Source of the DNA: a virus
IMG/VR virus record: IMGVR_UViG_3300033109_000080
Direction: 5' to 3' (one strand)
Length of the DNA: 35,216 nt
The position numbers and the translations under genes were made by a program. Shown piece after piece: positions 1,811 to 35,216 of the stretch; position 1 is the first letter of the stretch, and each line of letters begins with the position of its first letter. The notes beneath the pieces are model-generated. The model made no database searches and was not told where the DNA came from. It saw nothing but the letters and a program-made list of their open reading frames with translations.

Positions 1811-1812
1811 GC

Positions 1813-2022
1813 GTGCCCCGCGTGATCAGCGCAGATCCGATGGCGGCCGCAGCTCTGAGAGCGGACGCTGTCACCGCGCTCGACGAGGTCCGCACGAGCA
1901 AGCGCCCCCCCATGTCGCCTCTCGAGGCGCTCGCCGTCTACAGAATCGCGAACGGCGAGGCGGTGAAGTTCCTCGGCCGCTGGTCGCTCTCCGCCGGGCT
2001 CGCACAGGAGGCCGTGCTGTGA
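1813..2022 (+). CDS. Hypothetical protein (69 aa)
   Basis: ORF with a GTG start 3 nt after the previous stop. Its stop overlaps the next GTG (GTGA). No recognisable motif. Confidence 0.45.
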   Translation: MPRVISADPMAAAALRADAVTALDEVRTSKRPPMSPLEALAVYRIANGEAVKFLGRWSLSAGLAQEAVL

Positions 2023-4173: not shown

Positions 4174-4203
4174 CGGGTGAAAGCCTCGCGAGACGGTCCG
4201 GCC
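4174..4203 (+). promoter_or_regulatory. Conserved late-module leader element, copy 1 (CGGGTGAAAGCCTCGCGAGACGGTCCGGCC), abutting the protease ATG
   Basis: One of five copies; the others are at 9285, 16759, 32874 and 34911. It ends exactly at the ATG at 4204, and there is no Shine-Dalgarno sequence between them. Confidence 0.7.
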
Positions 4204-4890
4204 ATGACGATGGTCCGGCGCGAGCTCGCGGTCCTTCCGGTGGCGGCGGATGCCGCCGCGGCGAAGTCCCGGGTGCGCCGCTTCATCGCCAGCACCGACA
4301 CGCTCGACAGCCACAACAGCAAGATCAACCCCGACGGCTGGGAGCTCGAGCGCTTCAAGCGCAACCCGGTCATCCCGCTCTTCCACGCCTCGCGCGGGTT
4401 CCCGATCGGCAAGGGGCTCGACATCGGAGTCGTCGACCGCAAGCTGCAGCTCGGCATCGACTTCGCCCCGGCAGACGATCCGGTGGTGGGCGCGGACGCC
4501 GAGCAGGCGCTGCGCTGGATCGACCGCGGCGTGATGGCGGTCTCCGTCGGCTTCCACCCGCTCGAGGCCCAGGTCGCCGAGGATCGGTTGACCGGCGACC
4601 CGTGGGAAGATCTCTTCAACCCGCCCATCGACTACCTCCGGCAGGAGCTGCTCGAGGTGTCGATCGTCGCCATCGGCAGCAACCCCGACGCGTTGCCGCT
4701 GGGCCGCGAGCTGGTGGCCCGGGCCGCGCCGCGGACGCGGGTCGCCTGCGTCGCCGAGCTCGCGAAGCTCACCGCGGCCGCGGGCGAGCGCGTGCTGTCG
4801 CCAGACGAGCTGCGCCGGCTCGTCGCCGACGTCTTCAAGCAGTTGCGCGCCGATGCGGCGCGTCGCCGGGGCACCATCTCAGGAGGGTAA
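4204..4890 (+). CDS. Prohead maturation protease (HK97 / S78-U35 type)
   Basis: RRFIASTDTLDSHNSKINPDGW ... PLFHASRGFPIGKG ... GVMAVSVGFHPLE matches the layout of HK97-type prohead proteases. It lies immediately upstream of the major capsid gene. An alternative in-frame GTG is at 4177, inside the conserved element. Confidence 0.85.
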   Translation: MTMVRRELAVLPVAADAAAAKSRVRRFIASTDTLDSHNSKINPDGWELERFKRNPVIPLFHASRGFPIGKGLDIGVVDRKLQLGIDFAPADDPVVGADAEQALRWIDRGVMAVSVGFHPLEAQVAEDRLTGDPWEDLFNPPIDYLRQELLEVSIVAIGSNPDALPLGRELVARAAPRTRVACVAELAKLTAAAGERVLSPDELRRLVADVFKQLRADAARRRGTISGG

Positions 4891-4894
4891 CCAC

Positions 4895-6202
4895 GTGGAG
4901 ACCGTTTCCGTGAACATGACCGAGCTGAAGTCCATCATCCGCGACGCGGTCGCCGGCGAGATGAGCTCGCGCATGGAGGAGGCCACTGGCCGCGCGGTGA
5001 GCGAGGCCAAGAAGGCGGCGGCGGACCCGGCCGTGTTCCGCGAGATGCTGGACCGCGCGAAGGCCGCGGTCTCCACCACCGATCTCCCGCGCGCGACCGT
5101 CGACCGCACCACGCTGCAGGTCATCCACGATCCGCTCAAGGGCAAGGGCCTCAGTTTCGCCCGCTCCGTAAAGGCGATGGTGGTCGGCATCCTCGACCGC
5201 TGCTCGCCCGCCGACGTCGCCCGCGCCTGGGCGGCCAAGGGCTTCGCGCAGTACGAGGAGATCGCCGTCGCGCTCGACGCGCAGGCGCGCGCCTTCCTCA
5301 CCGGCGCCGCGGCGTCGGGCGGCACCCTCGTGCCCACGGCCCAGGCGGCCGAGGTCATCGAGCTGCTCTACCCGCGGACGGTCGCGCTCGTCTCCGGCGT
5401 CCGGACGATGGAGTTCACCGGCGCGGTCAACCTCGGCAAGATCAACAGCGGGGCGACCATCGGCTACACCGGTGAGGCCGGGCTGATGACGCCGAGCCAG
5501 CCGGGCACCGGCGAGCTGCGGATGTCGGGCAAGAAGGCGTACGGCCTGGTGCCCGTCTCGAACGAGATGCTCCGCAACCCGGCCGTGGGCGCCGACGCCC
5601 TCATCCGCGACGACCTGCTCAAGGCCCTCGCGGTCCGCCGCGACCTCAGCTTCTACCGCGGCGCCGGCAACACCTTCCAGCCGAAGGGCATGAAGGGCTG
5701 GATCAACAGCGCGAACTCGAACGCGATGACGGGCACGCCCACCGCCGCGACGAAGATCGCCGACCTGGTGAAGGCCATCGGCCTGGTCGACGGCGCCGAC
5801 GTGCAGCTCGATGAGTCGGCCGGCTTCGTCATGGCGCCCCGCACGCACTGGGCGCTCGTCGGCACCACCGACGCGAACTCGAACCTGCTCTTCGCGGCCA
5901 TGCTGGCGGCCGGGCAGCTCTTCGGCTTCATGTGCCGCCGGACCAGCTCGATCCCGACCAACCTCGGCGGGGGCACCGAGTCTGAGGTCTACTTCGGCTC
6001 GCACGGCGACGCGATCCTCGGCTTCGATCTCGCCAACCCGCTGCAGGTCGAGGCCTTCCCGAACGGGACGTACCACGACGGCTCCGCGCTCGTGTCGGGC
6101 ATCAGCACCGACATGACCCCCATCCGCATCCTCGAGGGCCACGACGTCGTGCTGCGGCACGACAAGGCCTTCGCGATGATCACCGGCGTCACCTGGGCCT
6201 AA
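4895..6202 (+). CDS. Major capsid protein (HK97 fold) with an N-terminal coiled-coil delta/scaffold region
   Basis: AGGAGGG at 4881-4887 lies 7 nt before the GTG at 4895. It encodes 435 aa after the protease, with a charged helical N-terminus followed by a Gly/Ala-rich body typical of HK97-family capsids. Confidence 0.9.
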   Translation: METVSVNMTELKSIIRDAVAGEMSSRMEEATGRAVSEAKKAAADPAVFREMLDRAKAAVSTTDLPRATVDRTTLQVIHDPLKGKGLSFARSVKAMVVGILDRCSPADVARAWAAKGFAQYEEIAVALDAQARAFLTGAAASGGTLVPTAQAAEVIELLYPRTVALVSGVRTMEFTGAVNLGKINSGATIGYTGEAGLMTPSQPGTGELRMSGKKAYGLVPVSNEMLRNPAVGADALIRDDLLKALAVRRDLSFYRGAGNTFQPKGMKGWINSANSNAMTGTPTAATKIADLVKAIGLVDGADVQLDESAGFVMAPRTHWALVGTTDANSNLLFAAMLAAGQLFGFMCRRTSSIPTNLGGGTESEVYFGSHGDAILGFDLANPLQVEAFPNGTYHDGSALVSGISTDMTPIRILEGHDVVLRHDKAFAMITGVTWA

Positions 6203-9284: not shown

Positions 9285-9314
9285 CGGGTGAAAGCCTCGC
9301 GGGACGGTCCGGGC
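9285..9314 (+). promoter_or_regulatory. Conserved late-module leader element, copy 2 (CGGGTGAAAGCCTCGCGGGACGGTCCGGGC)
   Basis: Identical to copy 1 at 27 of 30 aligned positions. Lies 22 nt upstream of the major tail ATG, which also has its own SD, GAGGAGGA. Confidence 0.7.
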
Positions 9315-9336
9315 GTCTCCACGAGGAGGACGCCCA

Positions 9337-16758: not shown

Positions 16759-16776
16759 CGGGTGAAAGCCTCGCGG
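16759..16776 (+). promoter_or_regulatory. Conserved late-module leader element, copy 3 (CGGGTGAAAGCCTCGCGG, 3' half diverged)
   Basis: Starts 3 nt after the fibre stop codon. The GTG start of the next ORF is 31 nt from the element start, with no SD. Confidence 0.6.
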
Positions 16777-19483: not shown

Positions 19484-19551
19484 CCGAGCAGCTTCAGCTC
19501 GAGCCAGTCGCCGAAGTCGTAGACGGCTGCGCAGCAGCGGCAGATCTTCAT
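19441..19551 (-). pseudogene. Open-ended zinc-ribbon-like ORF start (MKICRCCAAVYDFGDWLELKLLGYVGE...) lacking a nearby stop; probably a truncated gene remnant
   Basis: The ATG at 19551 overlaps the stop of the upstream minus-strand gene (ATGA). GC3 is high for about 30-37 codons, then the coding signal decays. This frame has no stop until 17470, and it overlaps the 3' end of the lipoprotein gene. Confidence 0.3.
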
Positions 19552-19889
19552 GCGGCCTCCAGCGGGATGACCTCGAGCTCGGCGATGGCGAAGATCTCGG
19601 TGTGCTCCGACCTCTCCCGCGCGGTCCGCTCGAGCGCGATGTAGCGGAACGGGAAGCCGGGCAGGCAGGGGATCTGCACGACGACCCCGCGGCGCCCCTG
19701 ATAGCGGTAGCCGGTCGGATCGCCCGAGTGCCGCCCTCGACGGACGACTCGCACCCGCGTGCCGATATCGAAGCCCAGCGCCGCGACGTTCGCCGCCCTC
19801 ACCGTCTCGCGCTCGGTGCACGCGCGGGTCGCCGCCGCATCCTGCTTGCCGACGTCGATTCCGCCCCAGAAAGGTCCCTTCGCCTTCAT
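19548..19889 (-). CDS. Hypothetical protein (113 aa), the only clear minus-strand gene; candidate lysogeny/immunity-side gene
   Basis: On the minus strand, SD GGGAGAGAAACC precedes the ATG at 19889. It is divergent from the RHH gene across an operator-like region. No DNA-binding motif recognised. Confidence 0.6.
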   Translation of the reverse strand: MKAKGPFWGGIDVGKQDAAATRACTERETVRAANVAALGFDIGTRVRVVRRGRHSGDPTGYRYQGRRGVVVQIPCLPGFPFRYIALERTARERSEHTEIFAIAELEVIPLEAA

Positions 19890-19935
19890 GGTTTCTCTCC
19901 CTCGGGCATCCCGAGAGAAATAATACACGGACTGC

Positions 19936-19970
19936 GTGCCGCTATGCACGTCTTTTGTGCTTGACAGCAC
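19936..19970. promoter_or_regulatory. Two operator-like palindromes GTGC-N6-GCAC (19936-19949 and 19957-19970), centres 21 bp apart
   Basis: Read directly: GTGCcgctatGCAC and GTGCttgacaGCAC. The second one brackets the -35 hexamer of the rightward promoter. Confidence 0.55.
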
Positions 19971-19989
19971 CGGACGCGTGGGCGAGTAT
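19961..19989 (+). promoter_or_regulatory. Candidate promoter TTGACA-N17-GAGTAT, 7 nt upstream of the ATG at 19997 (leaderless RHH mRNA)
   Basis: Perfect -35 hexamer, 17-nt spacer, -10 with 3 of 6 matches. On the opposite strand a TATTAT -10 (complement of 19920-19925) could serve the leftward gene. Confidence 0.45.
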
Positions 19990-19996
19990 CCGGCGC

Positions 19997-20398
19997 ATGT
20001 TGAGCGCAGCCACCGCATCGACTACGAGTGCAGCCGTCCCGACCATCAGGGCGGGCAGGAGGCTGCCGTTCGTGTCGAGGCGTCCGGGTCTGCGCGGTCG
20101 CGGTGCGAAGAGCCGTCTGAACATCACGCTGCCGAAACACCTCCTCGAAGAGGTGGACCGGCTGGTCGATGCTGAGGACGAGGCTTGGTCTCTGCGCGGA
20201 GGCTCGGCGAGCAGCTACGGCCGCAGCGACCTTCTCGAGATGTTCATCGAGTGGGCGATTCCTGAGTGGTACTCGCGCTACGGCGAGCTGCCGCAGAAGT
20301 CGGACCCGCGCCGCCGCGAGTTCATTCGTGGGCTGGCGGAGCAGCATCTCGCCGAGCTGCGCGACGACCTCTTGCGAGAGGTCAACAAGAAGGGCTGA
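19997..20398 (+). CDS. Ribbon-helix-helix (CopG/Arc/MetJ-type) transcriptional regulator
   Basis: SRLNITLPKHLLEEVDRLVD ... RSDLLEMFIEWAI forms a beta-strand/helix/helix RHH pattern. Start chosen at the ATG at 19997 because of the promoter geometry; the ORF track start at 19955 would lie inside the promoter. Confidence 0.65.
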   Translation: MLSAATASTTSAAVPTIRAGRRLPFVSRRPGLRGRGAKSRLNITLPKHLLEEVDRLVDAEDEAWSLRGGSASSYGRSDLLEMFIEWAIPEWYSRYGELPQKSDPRRREFIRGLAEQHLAELRDDLLREVNKKG

Positions 20399-20586: not shown

Positions 20587-20814
20587 ATGACCGTCACCGC
20601 GCTGGAGAACCTCCTCACCCTCGCCGAGACGGCGAAGCTCCTCCGCATCAGCCGGGGAAAGCTCCACGCCCTGGTGCGCGCGGGCGAGCTGAAGGCGGTG
20701 AAGTTCGGCCGCCGCACTCTCTTCCGCGCCGCCAGCGTCGCTGAGTTCGTCGACGCCCACGAGAAGCGGGCCACGCCGGCGCGGGCCCTCGCGCTCATCG
20801 GAGAGAAGCCGTGA
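20587..20814 (+). CDS. Excisionase-family helix-turn-helix DNA-binding protein
   Basis: LLTLAETAKLLRISRGKLHALVRAGELKAVKFGRRTLFRAASVAEFV is the classic excisionase/MerR-like HTH_17 pattern. Confidence 0.78.
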   Translation: MTVTALENLLTLAETAKLLRISRGKLHALVRAGELKAVKFGRRTLFRAASVAEFVDAHEKRATPARALALIGEKP

Positions 20815-21918: not shown

Positions 21919-22349
21919 AGGTCAAGCTCTCTGCGTACGAGCGAGCAGTGAATGCGCTGATGCGCACCGACTCTCGGCTGTCGGCGGAGCTCGAGGCGGC
22001 GATCCGGGCCGACATAAAGCGAGATCTGGCCCGGTTCGACTTCGTCGGGCACCTCCACCGTCAGCGCGACTTCAGCGAGCGCACCTTCGGCCCGGGCGAG
22101 CGGTCGGCCGGCGTCATCGACCACATCGAGAAGGAGCTCCGCGAGCTGCGCGAGGCGCCACTCGATCTCGAGGAGTGGATCGACGTCGTCATTCTCGCGC
22201 TCGACGGCGCCTGGCGGGCGGGCCACAGCCCGGAAGAGATCGTCGCGGCGCTGGTCGCGAAGCAGACGAAGAACGAGCGGCGCACCTGGCCTGATTGGCG
22301 CACCGCGGAGCCCGGCAAGTCCATCGAGCACGTTCGAGGTGGCCCGTGA
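21915..22349 (+). CDS. MazG-like dATP/dGTP pyrophosphohydrolase (DUF550-type)
   Basis: RDFSERTFGPGERSAGVIDHIEKELRELREAPLDLEEWIDVVILALDGAWRAGHSPEEIVAALVAKQTKNERRTWPDW matches the DUF550/MazG-like core as I remember it. Confidence 0.7.
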   Translation: MKVKLSAYERAVNALMRTDSRLSAELEAAIRADIKRDLARFDFVGHLHRQRDFSERTFGPGERSAGVIDHIEKELRELREAPLDLEEWIDVVILALDGAWRAGHSPEEIVAALVAKQTKNERRTWPDWRTAEPGKSIEHVRGGP

Positions 22350-22714
22350 GCGACCTCGCCCGCCTGGTGTTGACCGTCGACGAGAACCTCGCCGAGGACA
22401 CGGCCGAGGTCGGCGAGGTGCTGGTCAACGCCGACGACTGGCGGGAGCTCGTCACTCTCGCCCTCGTCGAGCTCGGGCTCGACAAGAAGGTCGTCGCTGC
22501 GGCGCCGAGCGCGAAGGTGCCCGGGCATGCCTCCTGGTGTGGGCTCGAGAAGCCCCACGCCGGCGAGTGCCAGATGGCGGCCACCGTGCGCTCTCAGCTC
22601 GACAACAAGAAGGCCTCTACGTCGCGCGCCCGCCAGCGCAGCGGCTCCAGACCCCGGGCGAGTCCCCCCCGATCCCGCCCGGGGTCTGATGTTCCACCGG
22701 AGGGCGCGGCGTGA
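22346..22714 (+). CDS. Hypothetical protein (122 aa) with a basic, low-complexity C-terminus
   Basis: GTGA overlaps at both ends. Confidence 0.5.
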   Translation: MSDLARLVLTVDENLAEDTAEVGEVLVNADDWRELVTLALVELGLDKKVVAAAPSAKVPGHASWCGLEKPHAGECQMAATVRSQLDNKKASTSRARQRSGSRPRASPPRSRPGSDVPPEGAA

Positions 22715-23058
22715 CTCTCCCTGCCCGCCTCCGCCAGGCGTCCCGCGAGCTCGCCGAGCTGGCCGACGATCTCGAGCGTCAGCTCGTCGAGCGGCGCGCT
22801 CCGGTCGCCACCACCTACGTCGCCGGCGCCGAGGTCTCGGTCGACGAGCTCGAGCTCACCGTTCGTGCCGCGAACATCCTGCAGGCGAACAGCATCCGCA
22901 CGGCGCAGCTCTGCGCCATGCGGCCGGGAGACGTCCTGCGGCTGGGGCGGGCGGGGCCGAAGGTCCTCGAGTCCGTGGAGCACGCCCTCGCGCGGCGAGG
23001 CCTCAAGTTGCGCCCGCGCCTCGGGCGGCCGCCGATGGGTGTCGAGGGGCTCCGGTGA
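22711..23058 (+). CDS. Stand-alone RNA polymerase alpha-subunit C-terminal-domain (alpha-CTD)-like protein with an N-terminal coiled coil
   Basis: VDELELTVRAANILQANSIRTAQLCAMRPGDVLRLGRAGPKVLESVEHALARRGLKL aligns by eye with E. coli alpha-CTD [58 protein letters not shown]. The Arg equivalent to R265 is included. Confidence 0.8.
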   Translation: MTLPARLRQASRELAELADDLERQLVERRAPVATTYVAGAEVSVDELELTVRAANILQANSIRTAQLCAMRPGDVLRLGRAGPKVLESVEHALARRGLKLRPRLGRPPMGVEGLR

Positions 23059-23450
23059 GCGCGCGCACTCGCTTCCAGCCGTGGTTCGCCCGCTCCTTCG
23101 ATGAGCGGTGCGCCGACAGGCCGACGAGGCGGCCGCGGGCCCACGAGCTGAAGTGCTGGCCCACGGCCTTCGAGGACGTGACTCAGGGCCGCAAGCACTA
23201 CGAGGTGCGGTGGGATGATCGCGGCTTCGAGGTGGGCGACTCGCTCATCCTCCGGGAGTGGAGTCCCTACAGCTCCTCTCTGGCCGTGCGCCCGTTCGAC
23301 GGCTTCACCGGCCGGGAGGCGTGGTTCGAGGTGGTCCACAAGACCGAAGGCGGCATGTGGGGTCTGCCCGAGGGACTCTGCGTGCTCGGCATCCGGCGCC
23401 ACGCGACGGCGCTGATTGCTTTGCCGTTGCGCCCGAGGAGTGCTGTGTAG
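23055..23450 (+). CDS. ASCH-fold protein (DUF3850-like)
   Basis: HELKCWPTAFEDVTQGRKHYEVRWDDRGFEVGDSLILREW is the DUF3850/ASCH signature (HeLK..p..F..v..G.K..E.R.nDR.f.vGD.l.L.E). Confidence 0.72.
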   Translation: MSARTRFQPWFARSFDERCADRPTRRPRAHELKCWPTAFEDVTQGRKHYEVRWDDRGFEVGDSLILREWSPYSSSLAVRPFDGFTGREAWFEVVHKTEGGMWGLPEGLCVLGIRRHATALIALPLRPRSAV

Positions 23451-24776
23451 ATGGCCCGCCTCTTCCATCGACCGGGTGACTCCACCTGGTGGCTCGACTT
23501 CACCGACGCGGCCGGGCGTCGGCGTCGCGTGAAGACGGACACCACTTCGAGGCGGGCCGCGGAAGATCTCCTCGCGGAGCTCCGCGCCAACCGCCGGCGG
23601 GAGTCCCTCGGCCTCGAGGCGACCACCAGCTCAGCGATCTCCACCGTCGCCCAGGCCTGGCGCCTCTGGCTCGAGCGGTGGTGCCCCGAGGCGTCCGCGC
23701 CCCGGGAGTGGCGCAGGTACCGGGCGAACATCGAGAAGTCCTGGTTCGGCCAGGAGCGCCTGACGCGCCTCACCGGTGAGCAGCTCGAGCGGTGGTTCGG
23801 CGAGAAGGTGAAGGCCGGCCAGGCGCCCCGCACCGTCAACGGCCACCGCACCATCCTGCGCCGGGTCGTCAACTGCCTCATCCAACGCCGGCTCTTCCGC
23901 GGCCTCAACCCGGTGCGCGAGACGAGGCCCCTGCAGGTCCCTGAGTACGCCTACCAGGTGCTCACCGAGGACGAGCTCCACCGCGTGCTGCCGCACCTGC
24001 CGGGCGAGTGGCGCGACGTCGTCGAGCTCGCCTTCACCGCGGGCCTGCGGCGAGGGGAGATCTACGCCCTCCGGAAGGACCGCGCCGTTCTGGACCTCGA
24101 GCGCGGCATCCTCACCCCGCGCGCGAGCAACGCCCGGCCGATGCCCAAAGGCCGCCGAATCCTCTCCATCCCCCTGACACCGGAGTCGCGGTCCGTGCTC
24201 GAGCGCGCCTGGGAGCGGACGCGTCCGGGCGAGCTGCTCTTCCCGGGCGTCGACGGGCAACTCCGGAGCGAGAACCTGAGGCCCTCGGAAGCCCTCAGGA
24301 GCGCGATGGGCCGCGCGGGGCTGGTCGAGGGCTGGCTGCACACCTGTCGGTGGCGCTGTGGGGTTCAGCAGCGTCACGATGACGAGCAGCAGCGTCGGTG
24401 CCCGAAGTGCGGGCGGCTGCTCTGGCCGAAGGCGCTCGTGCGGCGGGTGCGGTTCCACGACTTGAGGCACTCGACGGCCAACCACCTCCTCGACCGCGGG
24501 GTGCCGCTCGAGGACGTGCAGCTCTACTTGCGGCACTCCACCATCGCGATCACCGCCCACACCTACCGGCACCGCACCGTCGAGGCCCTGCGCAAGGCGG
24601 TCACCTCGCTGAGCCCTGAGCAGCTCGAGCGGCACCTCGACTCGCTCGCGCGCGGGCAGCCGGCGCACGTCCAGGCGCTCCTCCGAGAAACCGCCGCGAA
24701 ACTGGCACTTTTCAGGCACCAGCCCCTTGCACGAGGGGCCCTCAAACCAGCCAAATCCAACCGAAAGGCGAGGTAG
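23451..24776 (+). CDS. int: Tyrosine recombinase / phage integrase with an inserted CxxxC...CxxC zinc ribbon
   Basis: Catalytic signature AFTAGLRRGEI (Arg), FHDLRHSTAN (H-x-x-R), LRHS and AHTYRH (Tyr). The insertion is CRWRCGVQQRHDDEQQRRCPKCG. Lies adjacent to a tRNA-like sequence. Confidence 0.92.
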   Translation: MARLFHRPGDSTWWLDFTDAAGRRRRVKTDTTSRRAAEDLLAELRANRRRESLGLEATTSSAISTVAQAWRLWLERWCPEASAPREWRRYRANIEKSWFGQERLTRLTGEQLERWFGEKVKAGQAPRTVNGHRTILRRVVNCLIQRRLFRGLNPVRETRPLQVPEYAYQVLTEDELHRVLPHLPGEWRDVVELAFTAGLRRGEIYALRKDRAVLDLERGILTPRASNARPMPKGRRILSIPLTPESRSVLERAWERTRPGELLFPGVDGQLRSENLRPSEALRSAMGRAGLVEGWLHTCRWRCGVQQRHDDEQQRRCPKCGRLLWPKALVRRVRFHDLRHSTANHLLDRGVPLEDVQLYLRHSTIAITAHTYRHRTVEALRKAVTSLSPEQLERHLDSLARGQPAHVQALLRETAAKLALFRHQPLARGALKPAKSNRKAR

Positions 24777-24787
24777 AGTCGATGGAT

Positions 24788-24846
24788 GCACGAGTGGCGG
24801 AACTGGCAGACGCAGCGGACTTAAAATCCGCCGCACCGCAGTGTGC
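24788..24846 (+). other. tRNA-Leu(UAA)-like 5' two-thirds (acceptor 5' strand, D arm, anticodon arm, variable arm); no T arm or matching 3' acceptor strand; candidate attP core
   Basis: GCACGAG TG GCGGAACTGGCAGACGC A GCGGA CTTAAAA TCCGC C GCAC CGCAGT GTGC. The D loop has A14, G18 and G19. The anticodon stem is perfect and the loop is C-U-UAA-A-A. Downstream sequence does not fold into a T arm, and CTCGTGC is absent. Begins 12 nt after the int stop. Confidence 0.7.
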
Positions 24847-24987: not shown

Positions 24988-25566
24988 GTGAGCCAGGCCT
25001 TCGCGGACCGGCTCAAGAAGTTCCCGCCGATGGGATGGCGGGTCCGAAAGCTCGTGCCGGGAGATCAGCCGCAGCTCGATGTCTCGAAAGGCGGACCGGC
25101 GGTGCTCGAGATCGACGGGATCGGCCTGGCGATTGGCGCGCACGATGCCTTGCTCTCGCTGATCGGCACCTGGGAGTGCTTCCGCGTCCTCGGCTGCATG
25201 CGCGATCTGATGATGGAGGCTCGTACCGTCGGGCGGTCGGAAGAGGTCCATGCGTTGCTGCTCGCGCTGATCACGAGCGGCTGCGAGGAGGCTGACCGGG
25301 CAATCCGTGAGGTGGAGGCCGGCATGCGTGCGGAGGAGTCGCGCGCGAAGGGCGAGGGCACGGCGAACTTCCCATGGGCGCTCTACGATCCGAAGGGCCG
25401 CATGCACTGCGCCGGCGCCGAGGACGGTGAGCCGACCTACGGCATGGCGTGGAGCGACTGTCTGGCGGCGATGCGGCTGGTCGCGCTCCGCGGCGCCAAG
25501 TCGATCGCGCGCATGGACGCGCTCGAGCGCAAGCGGCCCTCCGAGATCCGCTGGAGGGCCGCGTGA
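24988..25566 (+). CDS. Hypothetical protein (192 aa), first gene downstream of the putative attP
   Basis: GGGGG precedes the GTG at 24988, which is in frame with ORF 24925..25566. Lower GC than the structural genes. No motif recognised. Confidence 0.5.
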   Translation: MSQAFADRLKKFPPMGWRVRKLVPGDQPQLDVSKGGPAVLEIDGIGLAIGAHDALLSLIGTWECFRVLGCMRDLMMEARTVGRSEEVHALLLALITSGCEEADRAIREVEAGMRAEESRAKGEGTANFPWALYDPKGRMHCAGAEDGEPTYGMAWSDCLAAMRLVALRGAKSIARMDALERKRPSEIRWRAA

Positions 25567-27086
25567 CCAGGCTCCTCAGCGTCGACCTCTTCGCAGGAGG
25601 CGGCGGGGCCTCGCTGGGAATGAGCGAGGCCCTCGGCTCTCCGGTCGATGTCGCGATCAACCACTCGCGGACCGCGATCGCGGTCCATCGCGCCAACCAC
25701 CCGCAGACGAGGCACCTGACCACCGACATCTTCTCACCGGAAGCCAGGCCCAGCCTGGTGATCGGGAATCGCCGAGTGGGAGATCTCTGGGCGAGCCCCG
25801 ACTGCACCGATCACTCCAACGCGAAGGGAGGCGTGCCGAACCGAGAGGAGGGAAAGGACACCAGGTTCCTCGCGTGGGTCGTGGTCGACTGGGCGCGCGA
25901 GGTGCGGCCCGAGCGGATCTACCTCGAGAACGTGCCCGAGTTCGAGAAGTGGGGGCCGATCATCGAAGTGCAGGGCAAGCGCCGCCGCGATCCGGCCCGA
26001 CTGGGCCAGACCTTCAGGCAGTTCGTCGGCTCGCTCGAGCTGCTCGGCTACCAGGTGGAATGGCGCACGCTGACCGCCTGCGACTACGGCGCGCCGACGA
26101 AGCGGCGTCGGCTCTTCTTGATCGCCAGGTGCGACGGGCTGCCGATCCGGTGGCCCGAGCCAACACACGGGCCCGGCTTGTTGCCGTACCGGACGGCGGC
26201 CGAATGCATCGACTGGAGTATTCCCTGCCGCTCCATCTTCGGGCGGCGGCGGCCGCTCGCCGAGAAGACGATGTGGAGGATCGCGCAAGGGCTCCGTCGA
26301 TTCGTCTTCGAGAACCCAGAGCCCTTCATCATCCAGGTGAACCACGGCCGCTGGGAAGATCGCAGCGCGTCGATGCACCAGCCGCTCTCGACGGTCACCG
26401 CCAGTCGTCGAGGGCACGCCCTCGTCGCCCCCGTCCTGATTCACAGCGGGAATGGCGAGCGCACGGGCCAGCGCGCTCGGACGTACGACCTGCACGAGCC
26501 TCTCGGGACGGTGATGGCCACCGGCCAGAAACACGCCTTGGTGATGGCGTTCCTGGCGAAGCACTTCGGCGGAGTGGTGGGACAGGAGCTGCCCAGGCCG
26601 ATGGGCACGGTGACGGCACGCGACCACCACAGCCTCGCCGCGGTGACGCTGGTGAACTACCGCGGCACGGACGAAGAGCACCCGGGGTGCTCGGACGTCG
26701 GGGGGCCCCTGCCAACGATCACCGCGCGCGGCACCCATGTCGCCGAGGTTCGCGCCTTCCTCACCGCCTACTACGGCGAGGATCACGCGCCCGGGTGTGG
26801 GCAGCCCCTCACTGCGCCGATGCGGACGCTCACCGCTCGGCAGCGGTTGGGCCTGGTGACCGTCGACGGGATCGACAAGCAGATCTGCGACATCGGTCTC
26901 CGCATGCTGCGCGCGCACGAACTCAAGGCGGCGCAGTTCGGGCGCTTCGCCGCTGCCTACGACCTGAGCGCAGCGCGGACTCAGGAGGCCCAGGTGATGC
27001 TGATCGGGAACAGCGTTCCGCCCGAGGTCGCCCAAGCCGTCGTCAGGGCGAACACCTGCGGCCAGAGAACTCGGAGGGCTGCGTGA
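25563..27086 (+). CDS. DNA (cytosine-5)-methyltransferase
   Basis: Motif I DLFAGGGGASLG, motif IV SPDCTDHSNA (PC-type catalytic Cys), motif VI ENVPEF, motif VIII DYGAPTKRRRLFLIA, motif X LIGNSVPP. GTG at 25563 (GTGA overlap). Confidence 0.9.
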   Translation: MTRLLSVDLFAGGGGASLGMSEALGSPVDVAINHSRTAIAVHRANHPQTRHLTTDIFSPEARPSLVIGNRRVGDLWASPDCTDHSNAKGGVPNREEGKDTRFLAWVVVDWAREVRPERIYLENVPEFEKWGPIIEVQGKRRRDPARLGQTFRQFVGSLELLGYQVEWRTLTACDYGAPTKRRRLFLIARCDGLPIRWPEPTHGPGLLPYRTAAECIDWSIPCRSIFGRRRPLAEKTMWRIAQGLRRFVFENPEPFIIQVNHGRWEDRSASMHQPLSTVTASRRGHALVAPVLIHSGNGERTGQRARTYDLHEPLGTVMATGQKHALVMAFLAKHFGGVVGQELPRPMGTVTARDHHSLAAVTLVNYRGTDEEHPGCSDVGGPLPTITARGTHVAEVRAFLTAYYGEDHAPGCGQPLTAPMRTLTARQRLGLVTVDGIDKQICDIGLRMLRAHELKAAQFGRFAAAYDLSAARTQEAQVMLIGNSVPPEVAQAVVRANTCGQRTRRAA

Positions 27087-27736: not shown

Positions 27737-28122
27737 CGCCGCGGCAGGAGCAGCTGATCCCCATGTGGCACTTGCCCGCCATCTCCATAAGGCGAGCTCC
27801 GCCGACCGGCCCACACGAAACGATGGTGACGGCGTGCGGTCACCGAGGACCCATTCGAGCCCGGGAAGACGTCGGAACTCGGCCCGCGCAAGGGACGCTG
27901 ATCGCCGTGGAGGAGATGGTCTGCGAGACATGCCTGGTGATGTGGGACCAAGCAGAGGAAACAGGGAAGTTCTTGCTGCGTTGGGTCAGCGACTTCACGC
28001 CGGAGTGGCGCGGACCGGGCGCCATCCTCTTCGCTCAACAGCCACACGTACTCTGCGTGAAGTGCAACCGCGGCTATGAGCGCCGCGGGTATCGGCCCGT
28101 CGCCGTGGTGGTGCGTCCTTGA
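27733..28122 (+). CDS. Hypothetical Cys-rich protein (129 aa), lower GC
   Basis: ATGA overlap. Contains CETC...CVKC pairs. Codon usage is less GC-biased than in the neighbouring genes. Confidence 0.5.
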   Translation: MTPRQEQLIPMWHLPAISIRRAPPTGPHETMVTACGHRGPIRAREDVGTRPAQGTLIAVEEMVCETCLVMWDQAEETGKFLLRWVSDFTPEWRGPGAILFAQQPHVLCVKCNRGYERRGYRPVAVVVRP

Positions 28123-29097
28123 GCTCGACGCCCTTCACTCTCCTCGTCGGCGATGCCCGTACGCGGCTTCGCCAGCTCGCGGCCGAGTCGGTGCAGTGCT
28201 GCGTCACATCGCCTCCGTACTGGAGAATGCGCGACTACGGGCACCGGCGGCAGGTCGGCCTCGAGAAGTCGCCGGAGGCGTACGTTGCGCGGCTGGTGAC
28301 GGTCTTCGCCGAGGTGCGCCGCGTGCTGCGCTCGGACGGGACGCTCTGGCTCAACGTCGGCGACTCCTACGCGTGCTCGGGCAAAGGCTCGACCGGCAAG
28401 ACCTCCACTCTGACGAATCCCTCTCGCTACGAGGAGGCCTCGCTGCCGGGGCGCTCGAAGACGGGCGAGGGGCTCAAACGCAAGGACCTGGTGGGAATCC
28501 CCTGGATGCTCGCCTTCGCGCTGCGCACTGCTGGCTGGTACCTCCGCGCCGACATCATCTGGCACAAGCCGTCGCCGGTGCCCGAGTCGATTCTCGACCG
28601 GCCGACGAAGGCACACGAGCACGTCTTCCTCTTCTCACGACAGCCGCAGTACCTCTACCGCGCCGAGGCCATCGGCGAGGCCTTCCGAGAACCTCGCTAC
28701 GCCACCGCGGCGAGCATCGGGGCGAAGACCCGCGCTGTGGACCGCGAGTACCTGGAGCGGTCGACCCTCGCGCAACAGCCTCGGCGCGGTTGGGCGAACG
28801 CGCGCGATGTCTGGACGATCGCGACTGAGCCCTTCGCCGGCGCGCACTTCGCTCCGATGCCGACCGAGCTCGCGCGGCGGTGCATCGTCGCCGGAAGCGG
28901 GGGGGGGGCATCTCGTGCTCGACCCTTTCGCCGGTGCCGGCACGACCGGGCTGGTGGCGCTTCGCGAAGGGCGCCGGTTCCTTGGCATCGAACTGAACGC
29001 CGGCTACGCGCGCATCGCCCAGAAGCGCTGCCGAGAGATCACGCTCGGGTTGCCCCTCGACTCGTCCTCATCTGGAGAACTCCGTGACGCCGTGTAG
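28119..29097 (+). pseudogene. Beta-class N4-C/N6-A DNA methyltransferase (SPPY motif IV) interrupted by a +1 frameshift in a G10 tract
   Basis: The N-terminal frame (28119..) has TSPPYW, IIWHKPSPVPES, RPTKAHEHVFLFS and HFAPMPTELARRCIVAGS. Motif I, VLDPFAGAGTTG, continues in the +1 frame (ORF 28807..29097). The frames meet at GGGGGGGGGG (28899-28908); 9 or 12 Gs would restore one ORF. Confidence 0.8.
28899..28908 (+). repeat. Homopolymeric G10 tract at the methyltransferase frameshift point
   Basis: Counted directly from the sequence: gcGGGGGGGGGGca. Confidence 0.9.
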
Positions 29098-29737: not shown

Positions 29738-30166
29738 ATGAGCAGCAACGACATCGAAAAGGCGTGGGCAGGCCTGGTGAAAGCCGGGCGGGACCTGGAC
29801 GCGGTCCCAGGCAAGGCCTCGGCGAACGCGCTCGGCGAGGCCGCCGTGGCGTACGCGCGGGCGCTGTGGCAGGAGCAGGGCCCGCAGGGCGTGACGCGGG
29901 GGAGCATCCCGCCGCCGCCCAGCCTGGGTCGCACGAACTCCTCGGCGCCCGAGTCGCGCGGCACTTCGAACTCGGCCGAGCTCAAGGTGCCGTTCGGCAA
30001 GCAGAAGGGGCAGCGGATCGGCGACGTCGACTCAAGGAACCTGCGGTGGCTCCTGGGGGTCGTCGAGGAGTCGATCGACAGCCCCGAGAAGGAGCGATTC
30101 CGGGCGAAGAACGTCGAGCTGCGCGATGCCGTGCGCGCCGAGCTCGAGGGGCGGGGTGAGCTGTGA
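29738..30166 (+). CDS. Hypothetical protein with a DUF3820-like C-terminal motif (VPFGKQKGQRIGDV..NLRWLL)
   Basis: SD GGAGGGG before the ATG at 29738. PFGK.kG..i.dv....L.WL is the motif I recall from DUF3820/ExoX-C-terminal-like phage replication-module proteins. Confidence 0.55.
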   Translation: MSSNDIEKAWAGLVKAGRDLDAVPGKASANALGEAAVAYARALWQEQGPQGVTRGSIPPPPSLGRTNSSAPESRGTSNSAELKVPFGKQKGQRIGDVDSRNLRWLLGVVEESIDSPEKERFRAKNVELRDAVRAELEGRGEL

Positions 30167-31260: not shown

Positions 31261-31688
31261 TCTCTCAGGCCCTGCGGGTGCGGATGGAGGCGCTCGAGGC
31301 GATCGCGTCGATGGACCCGCGCATCGTGCTGCGACTGCCGCTCCGCGTCGTCTCTCGAGGGAATGCGCGGTGGCATTGGGCTCGGCACGGCGAGCATTCG
31401 GCTCGGCACCGCCGGGCAGCGCATCTGGTGTGCCTCTCCCGCAGGGTCGAGCTGCGGCGGCTTCTCGCGCGAGGGCTCGTGGTGCGCGTCGTGCGGATCG
31501 CGCCGCGCTCCCTCGATACGCACGACAACCTCGGGACGGCCCTCAAGCCGATCGTGGATGGGGTCGCCGATGCGCTGGGCCTGGTTGATGACTCCGATGA
31601 GCGCGTGCGCTTCATCCCCGACGCCGAGCGAGGAGGCGTGCGCGAGGAGCTTGTGCGCCTCGAGTTCTACCCGCGGAGGGTCCGCTGA
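31257..31688 (+). CDS. rusA: RusA-like Holliday-junction resolvase
   Basis: RSLDTHDNLGTALKPIVDGVADALGLVDDSDERV parallels E. coli RusA [29 protein letters not shown] (D-x-D-N-L..K...D...DD). Start uncertain: GTG at 31257, or ATG at 31284 or 31311. Confidence 0.6.
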   Translation: MISQALRVRMEALEAIASMDPRIVLRLPLRVVSRGNARWHWARHGEHSARHRRAAHLVCLSRRVELRRLLARGLVVRVVRIAPRSLDTHDNLGTALKPIVDGVADALGLVDDSDERVRFIPDAERGGVREELVRLEFYPRRVR

Positions 31689-32767
31689 TGAACCTGGTCG
31701 ACGTCCTCGAGGGCCGCGCGCGCTGGGCGGTGCTCCATGGCGATTGCCGCGAGGGATTGCCGCTCCTTCCTTCGGGTTCGGTGGATGTTGCAGTGACCGA
31801 TCCGCCCTACAGCCATCACGTGCACTCGAAGCAGCGACGCATGCTGCGTGGGGGCGGTCGCCGCGGTGGTTCCGAGATCGGCTATGCGCCGCTCGGGTTC
31901 GAGGCGCTCGATGAGCAGACCCGCAGCCTGGTCGCGGGCCACCTGGGCAGGCTCGTACGACGCTGGTGCCTGGTGTTCAGCGACGCGGAGCACTGCTACC
32001 GCTGGCGCGAGGAGCTCGCCGATGCAGGCCTGCGACACGTGCGCGAGGGGGCCTGGGTCAAGCTCAACGGTCAGCCGCAGCTCTCGGGAGATCGGCCCGC
32101 CGTGGGTCACGAAGCCATCGAGATCGCGCACGGCCAGGTGAAGTGCCGATGGAGTGGAGGAGGCCTGCCAGCCCTCTGGGCGCACGCGATCGCGACCGAT
32201 CGCAACGGCACAGGCGCGCGGGTGCACACGACGCAGAAGCCGCTCGAGCTGATGCTGCGGTTGGTCGAGCAGTTCTCTGAGCCGGGCGAGCTCGTCCTCG
32301 ATCCGTTCGCCGGCGCCGGCACAACGGGCATTGCCTGCCTGCGACTCGGACGGAGGTACCTGGGCTGGGAGATCGACGAGCACTACGCCCAGGTCGCGCG
32401 AGAGCAGCTCCTCGCCGAGTCACGCGGTCTGACGATGCTCGAGGCGCGCGCCGGGCAGACGTCGCTCTGGGACTCGGAGCGGCCAGTACCAGAGCCGCCG
32501 CCGCAGCGTGAGTTCCTCGAGCGGCCCAACGGCCTGAGCTCAGACAAGATCCGCCGCATCGCCCAGCTCCGAGGTGAGGGGCTCTCACTTGCGGTGATCA
32601 GCGAGCGGCTCGGCGTCCACCCGAACACCGTGCACCGCCACCTGCAGCGCGCCGGGCTGGTGCGCAAGCGGTGGTGCTCGTGCGGTCGCCGGCTCAGGGG
32701 CGACGAGCCTCTCTGCTACACCTGCCGCGGCTACAGGCCGAACGGGCGCTTCGGCTTCGCGCGGTAG
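31688..32767 (+). CDS. Beta-class N6-adenine-type DNA methyltransferase (DPPY) fused to a C-terminal HTH and zinc ribbon
   Basis: VAVTDPPYSH (motif IV), HTTQKPLELM, LVLDPFAGAGTTG (motif I). The C-terminal extension contains IRRIAQLRGEGLSLAVISERLGVHPNTVHRHLQRAG and CSCG...CYTC. Confidence 0.85.
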   Translation: MNLVDVLEGRARWAVLHGDCREGLPLLPSGSVDVAVTDPPYSHHVHSKQRRMLRGGGRRGGSEIGYAPLGFEALDEQTRSLVAGHLGRLVRRWCLVFSDAEHCYRWREELADAGLRHVREGAWVKLNGQPQLSGDRPAVGHEAIEIAHGQVKCRWSGGGLPALWAHAIATDRNGTGARVHTTQKPLELMLRLVEQFSEPGELVLDPFAGAGTTGIACLRLGRRYLGWEIDEHYAQVAREQLLAESRGLTMLEARAGQTSLWDSERPVPEPPPQREFLERPNGLSSDKIRRIAQLRGEGLSLAVISERLGVHPNTVHRHLQRAGLVRKRWCSCGRRLRGDEPLCYTCRGYRPNGRFGFAR

Positions 32768-32873: not shown

Positions 32874-32891
32874 GAGGTGAAAGCCTCGGCC
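32874..32891 (+). promoter_or_regulatory. Conserved late-module leader element, copy 4 (GAGGTGAAAGCCTCGGCC; most diverged)
   Basis: Shares the GGTGAAAGCCTCG core. Its GTG (32877) is the ORF-track start of terS. Confidence 0.55.
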
Positions 32892-33683
32892 CACCATGGA
32901 GCCGTGCCGCCGAAGGTCGCCAAGAAGCGCTGCGCGCGCTGCCGCAAGTCGAAGCCGGTGAAGGGCTGGCCGCCCAACGCCGCTCGAGCAGACGGCCTGG
33001 GCATCTACTGCCGCCAGTGCAAGCGCGAGGCGGACCGCGGCGCGCCGCCCCCGAAGCCCAGATGGAACCGGCCCGCGTCGAAGGCGCCTCCCGGTGGAGA
33101 CGCGCCGAAGCGCAAGCCCGGCCCGGCCTCGAAGCTCACGCCCGAGCTCGTCGAGCAACTCTGCGCCGTGCTGCGCAAGGGGCACACCTACCGCGCGGCG
33201 TGCGCGCGCTCGGGCATCGACGATCGGACCTTCCGCGACTGGATGGCCGAGGGCCTCGAGGCGCGCACCGGGCCGAAGTGGGGGCTCTACCTCGCGGTGC
33301 GAGAGGCCGAAGGCGAAGGCGAGGCCTCGCTGACCGACATCGTCCGGGACGCCGCGGAGATCGATCCGCAGTACGCGAAGTGGCTGCTCGAGCGCCGTCA
33401 CCCCGTCGACTGGGCGCGCAAGGAGCAGATCGCCGTCACCGGCGGCGAGGGCAAGGCCCTGGAGGTGTCGGTTGTCCGAGAGCTCATCAGCAAGCGGATC
33501 GACGGTCTCCTCGCGGCTCGCCCAGCAACTCCGCCGAGTGGAGGAGCAGGCGGTGCTGGCGGACCAGCTCCAGGAGGCGGGGCAGGCGCCGCCATTGCCG
33601 AAGGTGCTGCGACTCCACCACCGCCTGCAGCTCCTGACGCCGGCGGAGAAGCAGAACCTCCTGGAGGCGCTGAGCGAAGCTGA
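32877..33683 (+). CDS. terS: Terminase small subunit (N-terminal zinc ribbon, HTH, Gly/Ala/Pro-rich tail)
   Basis: Immediately upstream of terL. LTPELVEQLCAVLRKGHTYRAACARSGIDDRTFRDWM is a typical TerS HTH. CARC...CRQC lies at the N-terminus. Start is the GTG at 32877 or at 32904. The 3' end overlaps terL by 212 nt. Confidence 0.65.
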   Translation: MKASAHHGAVPPKVAKKRCARCRKSKPVKGWPPNAARADGLGIYCRQCKREADRGAPPPKPRWNRPASKAPPGGDAPKRKPGPASKLTPELVEQLCAVLRKGHTYRAACARSGIDDRTFRDWMAEGLEARTGPKWGLYLAVREAEGEGEASLTDIVRDAAEIDPQYAKWLLERRHPVDWARKEQIAVTGGEGKALEVSVVRELISKRIDGLLAARPATPPSGGAGGAGGPAPGGGAGAAIAEGAATPPPPAAPDAGGEAEPPGGAERS

Positions 33684-34917
33684 GCTCGTCGCGCTCCTGT
33701 ATGACTGGACGGGCGCGTGGGCGCGCGACTCCCAGCTCATCCCCGCGGGCGACTGGTTCGTCTGGCTCATCCTCGCCGGCCGCGGCTACGGGAAGACGCG
33801 CACGGGCGCCGAGAGCGTGCGGCACCTGGCCGAGACGGGGCAGGCGCGGCGGATCGCCCTCATCGCGCCGACCTCCGCTGATGCCCGCGACGTGATGATC
33901 GAAGGCGAGTCGGGGCTGCTCGCGGTGTGCCCGCCCTCGGCGATGCCGAGGTATGAGCCCTCGAAGCGGCGCCTCACCTGGCCCAACGGCGCCCGCGCGA
34001 CGCTCTTCTCGGCCGAGGAAGGGAGCCGACTCCGCGGGCCCCAGCATGATCTGCTCTGGGGCGATGAGCCGGCGAGCTGGACGGACGAGTCCACCTGGCG
34101 GAATGCGGTGATGGGTCTGCGGCTGGGCCGGCAGCCGCGGGCGATTCTCACCGGCACGCCACAGCCGGTGCCGTTGATCTTGAGCCTGATGAAGGACCCG
34201 AAGACGCACCTCACCCGCGGGTCCACCTTCGAGAACGCAGGCAACCTCGCGAGCGAGTACATCCGCCAGGTGCAGCGCATGTACGCCGGCACGCGCATCG
34301 GCCGGCAGGAGCTCGAGGCCGAGGTGCTCGAGGACGTCGTCGGGGCGCTCTTCAACCAGGCCCTCATCGACAAGCACCGCGTCGAGAAGGCGCCGGACCT
34401 CGCCCGGATCGTCGTCGCGGTCGATCCAGCGCAGACGGGGACTGAACGCGCCGACGAGTCGCAGAAGCACAACGACGAGCACGGGATCGTCGTGTGCGGC
34501 AAGGATCTCGAGAGCGAGGACGCGCACGGCTACGTGCTCGCGGACCTCTCGATGCGCGGCAGCCCCGACGAGTGGGCCCGCGCCGCGGTGAAGGCGTTCT
34601 ACACGTTCCGCGCGAACTGCGTCGTCGTGGAGTCGAACTGCGGCGGCGAGATGGTCGAGGCGACGATCCGCACCATCGACGCCTCGGTGCCCGTGAAGAT
34701 CGTCCGCGCCATGCGCGGCAAGGCCAAGCGCGCCGAGCCCATCGCCGCGCTCCACGAGCAGGGCCGGATTCACCACGTCGGAGTCGAAGGGCTCGAGAAG
34801 CTCGAGAAGCAGATGCGCGTCTTCACGGGGGCGAACGGGCGCCGCGACGACAGGACGGACGCGATGTGCTGGGGCTTCCACGATCTGCTCGTCGGCGGCG
34901 GCTTCTTCTTCGGGTGA
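33472..34917 (+). CDS. terL: Terminase large subunit
   Basis: LLYDWTGAWARDSQLIPAGDWFVWLILAGRGYGKTRTGAE contains the Walker A motif GRGYGKT. The layout is an ATPase followed by a nuclease-like C-terminus. GGAGG (33461-33465) sits 6 nt before the TTG at 33472; later GTGs at 33538, 33553 and 33604 are also possible starts. Confidence 0.9.
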   Translation: MSESSSASGSTVSSRLAQQLRRVEEQAVLADQLQEAGQAPPLPKVLRLHHRLQLLTPAEKQNLLEALSEAELVALLYDWTGAWARDSQLIPAGDWFVWLILAGRGYGKTRTGAESVRHLAETGQARRIALIAPTSADARDVMIEGESGLLAVCPPSAMPRYEPSKRRLTWPNGARATLFSAEEGSRLRGPQHDLLWGDEPASWTDESTWRNAVMGLRLGRQPRAILTGTPQPVPLILSLMKDPKTHLTRGSTFENAGNLASEYIRQVQRMYAGTRIGRQELEAEVLEDVVGALFNQALIDKHRVEKAPDLARIVVAVDPAQTGTERADESQKHNDEHGIVVCGKDLESEDAHGYVLADLSMRGSPDEWARAAVKAFYTFRANCVVVESNCGGEMVEATIRTIDASVPVKIVRAMRGKAKRAEPIAALHEQGRIHHVGVEGLEKLEKQMRVFTGANGRRDDRTDAMCWGFHDLLVGGGFFFG

Positions 34918-34940
34918 AAGCCTCGCGGTACGTCCGGGCC
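34911..34940 (+). promoter_or_regulatory. Conserved late-module leader element, copy 5 (CGGGTGAAAGCCTCGCGGTACGTCCGGGCC), abutting the portal ATG
   Basis: Contains the terL stop (GGG TGA) and ends exactly at the ATG at 34941. Same 30-nt geometry as copy 1. Confidence 0.7.
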
Positions 34941-35216
34941 ATGGGCCTCCTCGGCCGCATCGCCGGTCTCTTCCGCCCCGCCTCGAGGGCCAGCGCCCCT
35001 GAAGGGACGCAGCTCGAGGGCGGGGTGCTGGTCCCGTCGACGGGCTTCGGCGGGCCACCGGCGCGCGGCACGCGCGAGCTCATCGCTGCCTATAAGACCG
35101 AGCCCTGGCTGCGGGCGGTCACTGGGCGCATCGCCCGCGGCGTCGCCGCGGCGACCTGGACCGTGTACGCCAGGAGCTCGACCCCGGCGCCGACGTCGAA
35201 CGCGCGCTCGCGCGGC
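34941..35216 (+). CDS. Portal protein N-terminus (continues at position 3 after circular closure; the last 239 nt duplicate 1-239)
   Basis: ATG at 34941. MGLLGRIAGLFRPASRASAPEGTQLEGGVLVPSTGFGGPPARGTRELIAAYKTEPWL... runs in frame into the ORF at 48..1502. Confidence 0.85.
   Translation, partial: MGLLGRIAGLFRPASRASAPEGTQLEGGVLVPSTGFGGPPARGTRELIAAYKTEPWLRAVTGRIARGVAAATWTVYARSSTPAPTSNARSRG
34978..35216. repeat. Terminal direct repeat, copy 2 (identical to 1..239)
   Basis: Base-by-base identity with 1-239. Confidence 0.95.

Follow-up and report, generated by a model that had tools for sequence, protein, structure and literature searches.

The protein encoded at positions 22711–23058 of the IMG/VR virus record IMGVR_UViG_3300033109_000080 was found to be, almost certainly, a true and specific homolog of the C-terminal domain of the bacterial RNA polymerase (RNAP) alpha subunit (alpha-CTD), as judged from sequence profiles and a predicted structure. 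The whole stretch of DNA that was analysed, 35,216 nucleotides (nt) long, is called the window here. The protein has only 115 amino acids (aa), lacks the alpha N-terminal domain, is encoded in an early phage operon and has an architecture that recurs in other phages. The open reading frame (ORF) had been claimed in an earlier note on this DNA, and it was recovered at the same position, on the + strand and with the sequence quoted there. The gene and the parts of its product are as follows.

22711–23058, + strand: gene of the stand-alone alpha-CTD protein, 115 aa, GTG start, TGA stop (ORF, Pfam PF03118 and PDB alpha-CTD sequence matches).
22699–22704, + strand: Shine-Dalgarno-like GGAGGG, separated from the GTG start by 6 nt (direct reading of the sequence).
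22717–22797, + strand: predicted N-terminal amphipathic helix, aa 3–29, candidate dimerisation or partner-binding helix (AlphaFold2, block predicted local distance difference test (pLDDT) 86–97).
22798–22830, + strand: linker, aa 30–40 (APVATTYVAGA), uncharged and probably flexible (block pLDDT 57, without secondary structure; composition).
22831–23010, + strand: alpha-CTD fold, aa 41–100, with the R52 codon at 22864–22866 (Pfam, phmmer, AlphaFold2, Foldseek and BLASTP).
23011–23055, + strand: basic proline-rich tail, aa 101–115 (RPRLGRPPMGVEGLR), charge +4/-1 (alignments, composition).

The identity of the domain was supported by sequence and by structure. Pfam family PF03118 (RNA_pol_A_CTD) was detected at aa 41–94 (E 1.3e-5), spanning profile positions 12–66 of 67, although its 25.2 bits exceed the gathering score of 23.8 by a narrow margin. 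The phmmer search against all PDB sequences gave RpoA, without exception, as the best 41 matches. The E. coli alpha-CTD was matched over aa 44–109 (E 2.3e-6, 31.1 bits), and the printed alignment was exactly the one that the earlier note had drawn by eye between residues 44 to about 105 and the C-terminal domain of RpoA. Likewise, BLASTP against E. coli RpoA gave 27 identical residues out of 66 (41%) at about residues 257–322, with a pairwise E value of 3e-11. The NCBIfam rpoA models (E 4.5e-7) were matched by their last ~65 positions only and far under their cut-offs, which shows that the protein corresponds to the domain and not to the subunit. The RpoA equivalog model TIGR02027 (cut-off 227.8), for example, scored 29.3 bits and aligned only at profile positions 231–296 of 298. 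An RpoA ortholog was ruled out on this low score, on the length of 115 aa and on the first 40 residues, which form a lone helix and a linker.

The AlphaFold2 model of the protein, built on 34 relatives, had a mean pLDDT of 87.1, with values >90 throughout the alpha-CTD domain. When the model was compared with the PDB using Foldseek, all of the top 50 matches were RpoA or alpha-CTD, and no non-RpoA structure was found among them. Domain-only chains, including 8y5t_A2, 3gfk_B, 1lb2_E and 1z3e_B, were superposed with a root-mean-square deviation of 0.9–1.3 A over 59–63 columns and a target template modelling score of 0.75–0.87. Even with E values of up to 10 admitted, the Pfam matches of the query included neither HHH_5 nor any other helix-hairpin-helix (HhH) family. 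As no HhH family or structure competes with alpha-CTD, the profile and structure checks proposed in the earlier note gave a confident model with RpoA-only matches and not the generic HhH module that the note had set against its prediction. A generic (HhH)2 domain of the RuvA domain II, ComEA or Pol beta-like type was therefore rejected, since profile and fold matches are all RpoA. An excisionase or recombination directionality factor was also considered and rejected: the fold is that of alpha-CTD, and a separate HTH_17 excisionase-like gene lies at 20587–20814.

The gene itself has the features of a normal coding sequence. Gene calling done independently on a Logan contig, a public sequence identical to the window over 12.1 kb, gave identical coordinates, and the G+C contents of the three codon positions (0.80, 0.54 and 0.89) follow the usual coding pattern of this window of ~70% GC. 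Both the start and the stop of the gene lie in a GTGA overlap with a neighbouring gene. At the 5' end, the TGA stop of the upstream orphan gene overlaps the GTG of the alpha-CTD gene, which indicates that the two genes are translationally coupled.

Residues 44–108 of the query correspond to residues 257–323 of the 329-aa E. coli chain, so that R52 is the equivalent of R265, the arginine which the earlier note had correctly placed in this protein. Four of the six residues of the DNA-binding '265 determinant' are identical, namely R265 (R52), N268 (N55), G296 (G82) and K298 (K84). The acidic pair D259/E261, which contacts sigma region 4, is present as E46/E48, whereas the '287 determinant' contacting CAP is not conserved (R71-P72-G73-D74 versus T-E-V-E). 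Relative to the RpoA alpha-CTD, the domain is one residue shorter after helix 2. Conservation was assessed with our own hidden Markov model of the domain, for which 329 domain instances were aligned from 148 proteins (the 136 matches of an exhaustive search, described below, together with members of their clusters). Among 47 small single-domain relatives, which had been selected for their similarity to the query, R265 is conserved in 100%, N268 in 96%, G296 in 96% and K298 in 77% (with arginine in a further 13%). In this set, the residues of the DNA-contact surface are conserved to the same degree as the hydrophobic core, which points, indirectly, to selection for DNA contact. Moreover, the alpha-CTD domain together with the tail carries a net basic charge. 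The sequence data thus favour retained DNA binding, while they do not distinguish between the decoy, bridging and recruitment roles listed in the earlier note.

Outside the domain, the start of the tail can still be aligned with the RpoA tail MRLENWPP, with RL..PP common to both. The N-terminal part is modelled as an amphipathic helix with L3, L7, A10, L14, L17 and L21 at the a/d positions. The earlier note had placed nothing but a short coiled coil before the domain. A single helix at aa 3–29 is indeed predicted with confidence, but the coiled coil was not borne out by its heptads, as 5.8% of shuffled sequences match as good a pattern; on the model, a coiled coil is plausible. As no alpha N-terminal domain is present, the protein cannot dimerise into or assemble a polymerase.

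The word-index homolog search with the protein returned only the protein itself. The exhaustive search retrieved 136 representatives at E up to 1e-3, with no close full-length homolog. Only four of the 148 proteins derived from this search are RpoA-like, while 92 carry 2–12 tandem alpha-CTD repeats and 48 are small proteins with one such domain. The highest-scoring single-domain stand-alone relatives reached 35.6–43.1 bits with 45–50% identity in the domain, compared with 31.1 bits for the E. coli alpha-CTD, which argues against a recently acquired fragment of a host rpoA gene. Most of the best matches were tandem arrays, such as P0002 (1031 aa) with 11 Pfam-scored repeats; such arrays have, to our knowledge, no described function.

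When the window protein was compared by tblastn with 50,697 phage records, no match was obtained. The use of a consensus alpha-CTD query on the same records yielded 22 of them, mostly with host rpoA in mislabelled 'phage' entries, and the only true phage genes were those of Goe8 (two accessions) and Mazun. The records carrying host rpoA, e.g., 'Acinetobacter phage MD-2021a' of 240 kb and Salmonella whole-genome shotgun contigs of 515–582 kb, are apparently bacterial. Neither the query nor any of six relatives had its domain covered by a PHROGs v4 family. A C-terminal PF03118 domain is present both in gp26 of Microbacterium phage Mazun ('DNA binding protein', 141 aa) and in c00050 of Bacillus phage vB_BmeM-Goe8 of the Herelleviridae ('RNA polymerase subunit alpha', 210 aa). 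The BFVD database contains uncultured Caudovirales proteins of 111–139 aa (A0A6J5MNY7 and others) named 'RNA polymerase, alpha subunit, C-terminal', as well as proteins from Rhodococcus phage Finch and Mycobacterium phage Mithril. In IMG/VR, a single restrictive peptide pattern retrieved 22 loci, and the 21 ORFs counted there as intact, one of which is cut by a contig end, are 86–230 aa long, with none of RpoA size. The neighbours of the IMG/VR alpha-CTD genes include DNA polA, RecT, ERF, YqaJ, RusA, KilA-N, antirepressor and DUF3310 genes.

The architecture of the phage stand-alone alpha-CTD proteins (~100–240 aa, a single C-terminal PF03118 domain, a variable N-terminus and a position among early genes) is also that of the window protein. 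The N-terminal parts of the relatives comprise a coiled-coil-like helix, phrog_13182, phrog_2201 and Sigma70_r4. P0084, P0088 and P0118 (106–112 aa) likewise consist of a helix and an alpha-CTD and lie within strings of small overlapping ORFs, and P0143 is located in a phage early block. In P0048 (161 aa, metagenomic contig L129, positions 717–1202, in a string of small ORFs), Sigma70 region 4 (41 bits) is fused to an alpha-CTD (54.5 bits). This fusion joins modules that read the adjacent -35 and upstream promoter (UP) DNA, which suggests that at least part of the family acts at promoter-upstream DNA. The gene of P0016 (166 aa, two alpha-CTD repeats) overlaps the start of an ART-PolyVal ADP-ribosyltransferase gene by 4 nt on two metagenome contigs, and an enzyme may here be paired with a look-alike of its target.

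L156, 484–1631, and L157, 465–1612: P0016 and ART-PolyVal locus, one locus type.

Stand-alone genes are found in cells as well. P0137 (144 aa, L154, 1190–1624) adjoins secE-nusG in divergent orientation, and the representative of its cluster, P0041, has 46% identity to the query domain and a G-P-K hairpin motif in common with it; another cellular relative sits among metabolic genes. The name 'DNA-directed RNA polymerase subunit alpha C-terminal domain-containing protein' is already in use at NCBI, e.g., for WP_460185177.1. The novelty implied by the earlier note was therefore overstated, since stand-alone alpha-CTD proteins are already present, under automatically given names, in phage and bacterial databases; the protein described here is a new, divergent member of this group.

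The alpha-CTD gene belongs to an early/lysogeny operon, a chain of co-directional genes, each overlapping the next by 4 nt, from the HTH_17 gene through the integrase. The order is the HTH_17 gene, three phage genes of unknown function, a dATP/dGTP pyrophosphohydrolase gene (21915), the orphan, the alpha-CTD gene, the DUF3850 gene and the integrase gene.

20587–20814, + strand: HTH_17 excisionase-like gene, start of the gene chain with 4-nt overlaps running to the integrase (Pfam, PHROG, gene call).
22346–22714, + strand: orphan gene, 122 aa, upstream of the alpha-CTD gene (gene call).
23055–23450, + strand: DUF3850 gene (ASCH-like; PHROG 'RNA-binding protein'), whose GTG start overlaps the stop of the alpha-CTD gene (Pfam, PHROG, gene call).
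23451–24776, + strand: tyrosine integrase gene, the final gene of the operon (Pfam Phage_integrase, E 2.4e-16).

For the orphan at 22346–22714, no Pfam or PHROG match and no homolog was found, and its AlphaFold2 model (pLDDT 49) was unusable. Further upstream, a divergent control region at 19890–20071 separates a leftward gene of 113 aa (19548–19889) from the rightward early genes. The scan for consensus promoters found nothing. By eye, a rightward promoter-like site was recognised at 19961–19989, with TTGACA at 19961–19966, a 17-nt spacer and GAGTAT; a T-tract, TCTTTTG, lies immediately upstream of this -35 element, and the site heads the early region. On the - strand, a leftward TATTAT was seen at 19919–19924. 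The AT-rich tract at 19913–19929 was considered as a UP-like target and set aside, as it is more simply read as the -10 element (TATTAT) of the leftward gene.

We propose, tentatively and with rather more doubt than confidence, that the product is an early, probably dimeric, polymerase-free alpha-CTD which competes at docking sites and thereby retunes promoters. The early-expressed copy of the domain would work in trans, outside the polymerase. Its amphipathic helix would probably pair two copies through the flexible linker, and such a pair would mimic the two tethered alpha-CTDs of RNAP. Without bringing a polymerase, the protein would occupy UP-like DNA beside -35 elements, surfaces on sigma region 4 and on activators, or both. 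Competition with the alpha-CTDs of host RNAP may then retune UP- or activator-dependent promoters, either those of the host or the early promoters of the phage, during early infection or at the lysis-lysogeny decision. A precedent for such a mechanism is that phages repeatedly target the contact between alpha-CTD and UP elements: Alt and ModA of phage T4 ADP-ribosylate R265 of alpha-CTD (PMC2988021), and gp67 of Staphylococcus aureus phage G1 blocks the binding of alpha-CTD to UP elements (PMC3694059).

Several points weigh against this competition. Two of the six determinant residues are changed (C269 to I56 and S299 to V85), and K297 is replaced by proline, although the C269 to I and S299 to V substitutions occur in relatives too. 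An isolated alpha-CTD binds DNA weakly, and an untethered domain is expected to be a poor competitor of the alpha-CTDs tethered to RNAP. The heptad signal of the helix, on which dimerisation would depend, is weak. In the whole 35-kb window there are only two AT-rich 12-mers, one of them within 19890–20071, which suggests that classical UP targets may be rare in a phage and host of ~70% GC. No partner gene was seen to be conserved across eight viral loci, whose 90 neighbour ORFs yielded only early, replication and recombination genes of a generic kind. Since some relatives are cellular, the family need not have a single function, and searches of full-text literature yielded no functional study of phage or stand-alone alpha-CTD homologs. 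The wider view that stand-alone alpha-CTDs are widespread transcription take-over factors of phages, acting by molecular mimicry, with a dimeric copy redirecting host RNAP and with the sigma-fused and ADP-ribosyltransferase-paired relatives included, is possible but more doubtful.

The retained determinants would fit equally well a positive adaptor or activator, an unlikely alternative to competition, in which the alpha-CTD sits on promoter-upstream DNA, a grip on RNAP, sigma region 4 or a phage regulator is provided by the helix or by the acidic D259/E261-like patch, and polymerase is recruited to phage promoters without good upstream contacts. The variable N-terminal modules of the relatives (phrog_13182, phrog_2201, Sigma70_r4) resemble interchangeable 'handles', and the promoter-like site at 19961–19989, with its T-tract, is suitably placed at the head of the early region. 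However, no RNAP-binding motif could be identified in the 27-residue helix, no specific DNA target is indicated, and the consensus promoter scan was empty.

It is improbable that the protein is an architectural accessory, whose HhH module would bind or bend DNA non-specifically for the integrase and excisionase or for the replisome. Such a role would suit a gene ~400 bp upstream of the integrase, in an operon shared with an excisionase-like helix-turn-helix (HTH) gene, and also the relatives among RecT, ERF, RusA and DNA polA genes. Relatives are nevertheless found in phages and contigs without a nearby integrase, including Goe8 and Mazun. Moreover, fold and residues are specific to alpha-CTD and not RuvA- or Pol-beta-like (the top 50 PDB matches being RpoA), and the Pfam matches at E up to 10 include no HhH family.

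The 4-nt overlap of the P0016 and ART-PolyVal genes on two metagenome contigs brings up a further alternative, a highly improbable one: a target decoy that soaks up enzymes or inhibitors directed at the genuine alpha-CTD, for instance R265-directed ADP-ribosyltransferases or alpha-cleaving factors of rival phages or of defence systems, or that is the adaptor or immunity partner of such an enzyme. R265 is the residue modified by T4 Alt and ModA (PMC2988021), and its invariance in the small proteins would also suit a substrate mimic, yet the pairing is restricted to a single locus type, the scanned proteins of the window showed no ADP-ribosyltransferase or enzyme of a similar kind, and the upstream orphan is uninterpretable. 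Finally, that the gene derives from a captured rpoA fragment and has lost its function, or that the likeness is due to chance or to a generic HhH, is barely credible in spite of the Pfam score close to its threshold (25.2 vs 23.8) and the lack of a close full-length homolog in the word-index and exhaustive searches, as the ORF is intact, has a normal coding signature and is coupled to both neighbours, the confident model fits solved alpha-CTDs at ~1 A with the functional surface residues kept, and single-domain relatives score 35.6–43.1 bits against 31.1 for E. coli RpoA.

The earlier note had called the protein phage-encoded, and the portal, capsid and large terminase genes, together with the integrase gene, are indeed present in the window. 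The remaining features of the genome are given below.

48–1502: portal gene, at the window start.
4853–6202: HK97-type capsid gene.
33472–34917: large terminase gene, at the window end.
25449–27086, 28119–29087 and 31688–32767: three DNA methyltransferase genes, one C5 cytosine and two N6/N4.
24788–24831, + strand: 5' part of a tRNA-Leu(UAA) gene, 44 nt, probable core of the phage attachment site attP (identity to Myxococcus/Corallococcus tRNA).

The window looks like one complete, circularly permuted temperate phage genome of ~35 kb, with the integrase and attachment region mid-window, between the portal gene at the start and the large terminase gene at the end. No exact terminal repeat was present in the 35,216 nt. 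The megablast search of 20 kb of the window against the deposited phages (50,697) gave no match, the capsid is merely 33% identical to capsids of Burkholderia phiE125-like phages, and a scan of GTDB species genomes with the integrase for related prophages found no relative. The methyltransferase at 31688–32767 carries a fused C-terminal HTH resembling sigma region 4. Between the portal and capsid genes, an ORF of 435 aa (1803–3110, + strand) has Kelch-repeat matches (Kelch_1, E 5.8e-25), a domain unusual for the head-gene region of a phage; it is a candidate gene, as its GC content at third codon positions is not over the coding cut-off.

The 44-nt tRNA-Leu(UAA) stretch begins 12 nt past the integrase stop and extends from the acceptor stem through the anticodon stem, with no complete tRNA present at this site. 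The public Logan contig breaks at window position 24833, at the same stretch. The fragment is the 5' part of the tRNA, while the 3' part would be the usual one. Its 38-nt core is common to many phyla; when extended to the acceptor stem, it was found, among the matches listed, in Myxococcus/Corallococcus only. This extended match, which is in keeping with the GC content, suggests from the sequence that the host belongs to the Myxococcaceae.

A repeat containing GTGAAAG (cGGGTGAAAGCCTCGCGG...) was also analysed, as the earlier note had offered this motif as a possible target of the protein. The repeat is ~30 nt long and G+C-rich, has the consensus cGGGTGAAAGCCTCGCGrgACGGTCCGGsC and occurs in six copies, on the + strand only. 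For GGTGAAAGCCTCGCGG, six + strand copies were found within 3 mismatches against 0.95 expected, and GTGAAAG alone had seven matches against 1.25 expected.

4176–4205, 9287–9316, 16761–16776 and 34913–34942, + strand: four best copies of the repeat (mismatch scan).
29776–29791 and 32876–32891, + strand: weaker copies of the repeat (mismatch scan).

The four best copies lie in the structural block, either between genes or just 5' of presumed start codons; in the copy at 34913, the TGA at 34914 is the terminase stop. For the repeat, a role as late promoter, as processing site or in translation is conceivable. The alpha-CTD recognises A/T-rich minor grooves, whereas the repeat contains only an AAA run, and we found no support for it as the target of the alpha-CTD protein.

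If the proposed competition is true, a spare copy of the domain would be a fourth, mimicry-based tactic of phages, beside modification (Alt/ModA), steric block (gp67) and the cleavage of alpha reported for Rac of phage phiKMV. No description of a spare alpha-CTD copy as a phage tactic was found in the literature searches. Pfam finds the family readily, and its members recur both in cells and in the early regions of phages, so the function of one member would inform many, including a sizeable group of phage genes that are now 'hypothetical' or mislabelled 'RNA polymerase subunit alpha', a label which stand-alone alpha-CTD genes should lose. The protein is also a candidate regulator of a new temperate phage with a tRNA-Leu attachment-site match to Myxococcus/Corallococcus, a group in which transcription is heavily activator-dependent.

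Compared with the alpha-CTD of RpoA (PF03118; PDB 1LB2, 3K4G, 3N97 and 1Z3E), the window protein shares the predicted fold, the key residues and the start of the tail, but has a 27-residue amphipathic helix in place of the alpha N-terminal domain. For the fusion of sigma region 4 and alpha-CTD in P0048, PDB 3n97, which is among the fold matches, serves as the comparison. The small alpha-CTD proteins of phages (Caudovirales, Mazun, Goe8, Finch and Mithril) have the same architecture and lie among small early genes, although they are only 23–33% identical to the window protein in fold alignments and differ from it in their N-terminal parts. The cellular stand-alone and tandem alpha-CTD proteins are the closest relatives in sequence that were found, whereas the window protein is phage-borne and single-domain. 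With T4 Alt and ModA, G1 gp67 and Rac, it would share the target process, that is, the contact of alpha-CTD with upstream DNA or activators in early infection. Unlike these enzymes or sigma-binding proteins, to which it has no homology, the window protein itself duplicates the targeted domain.

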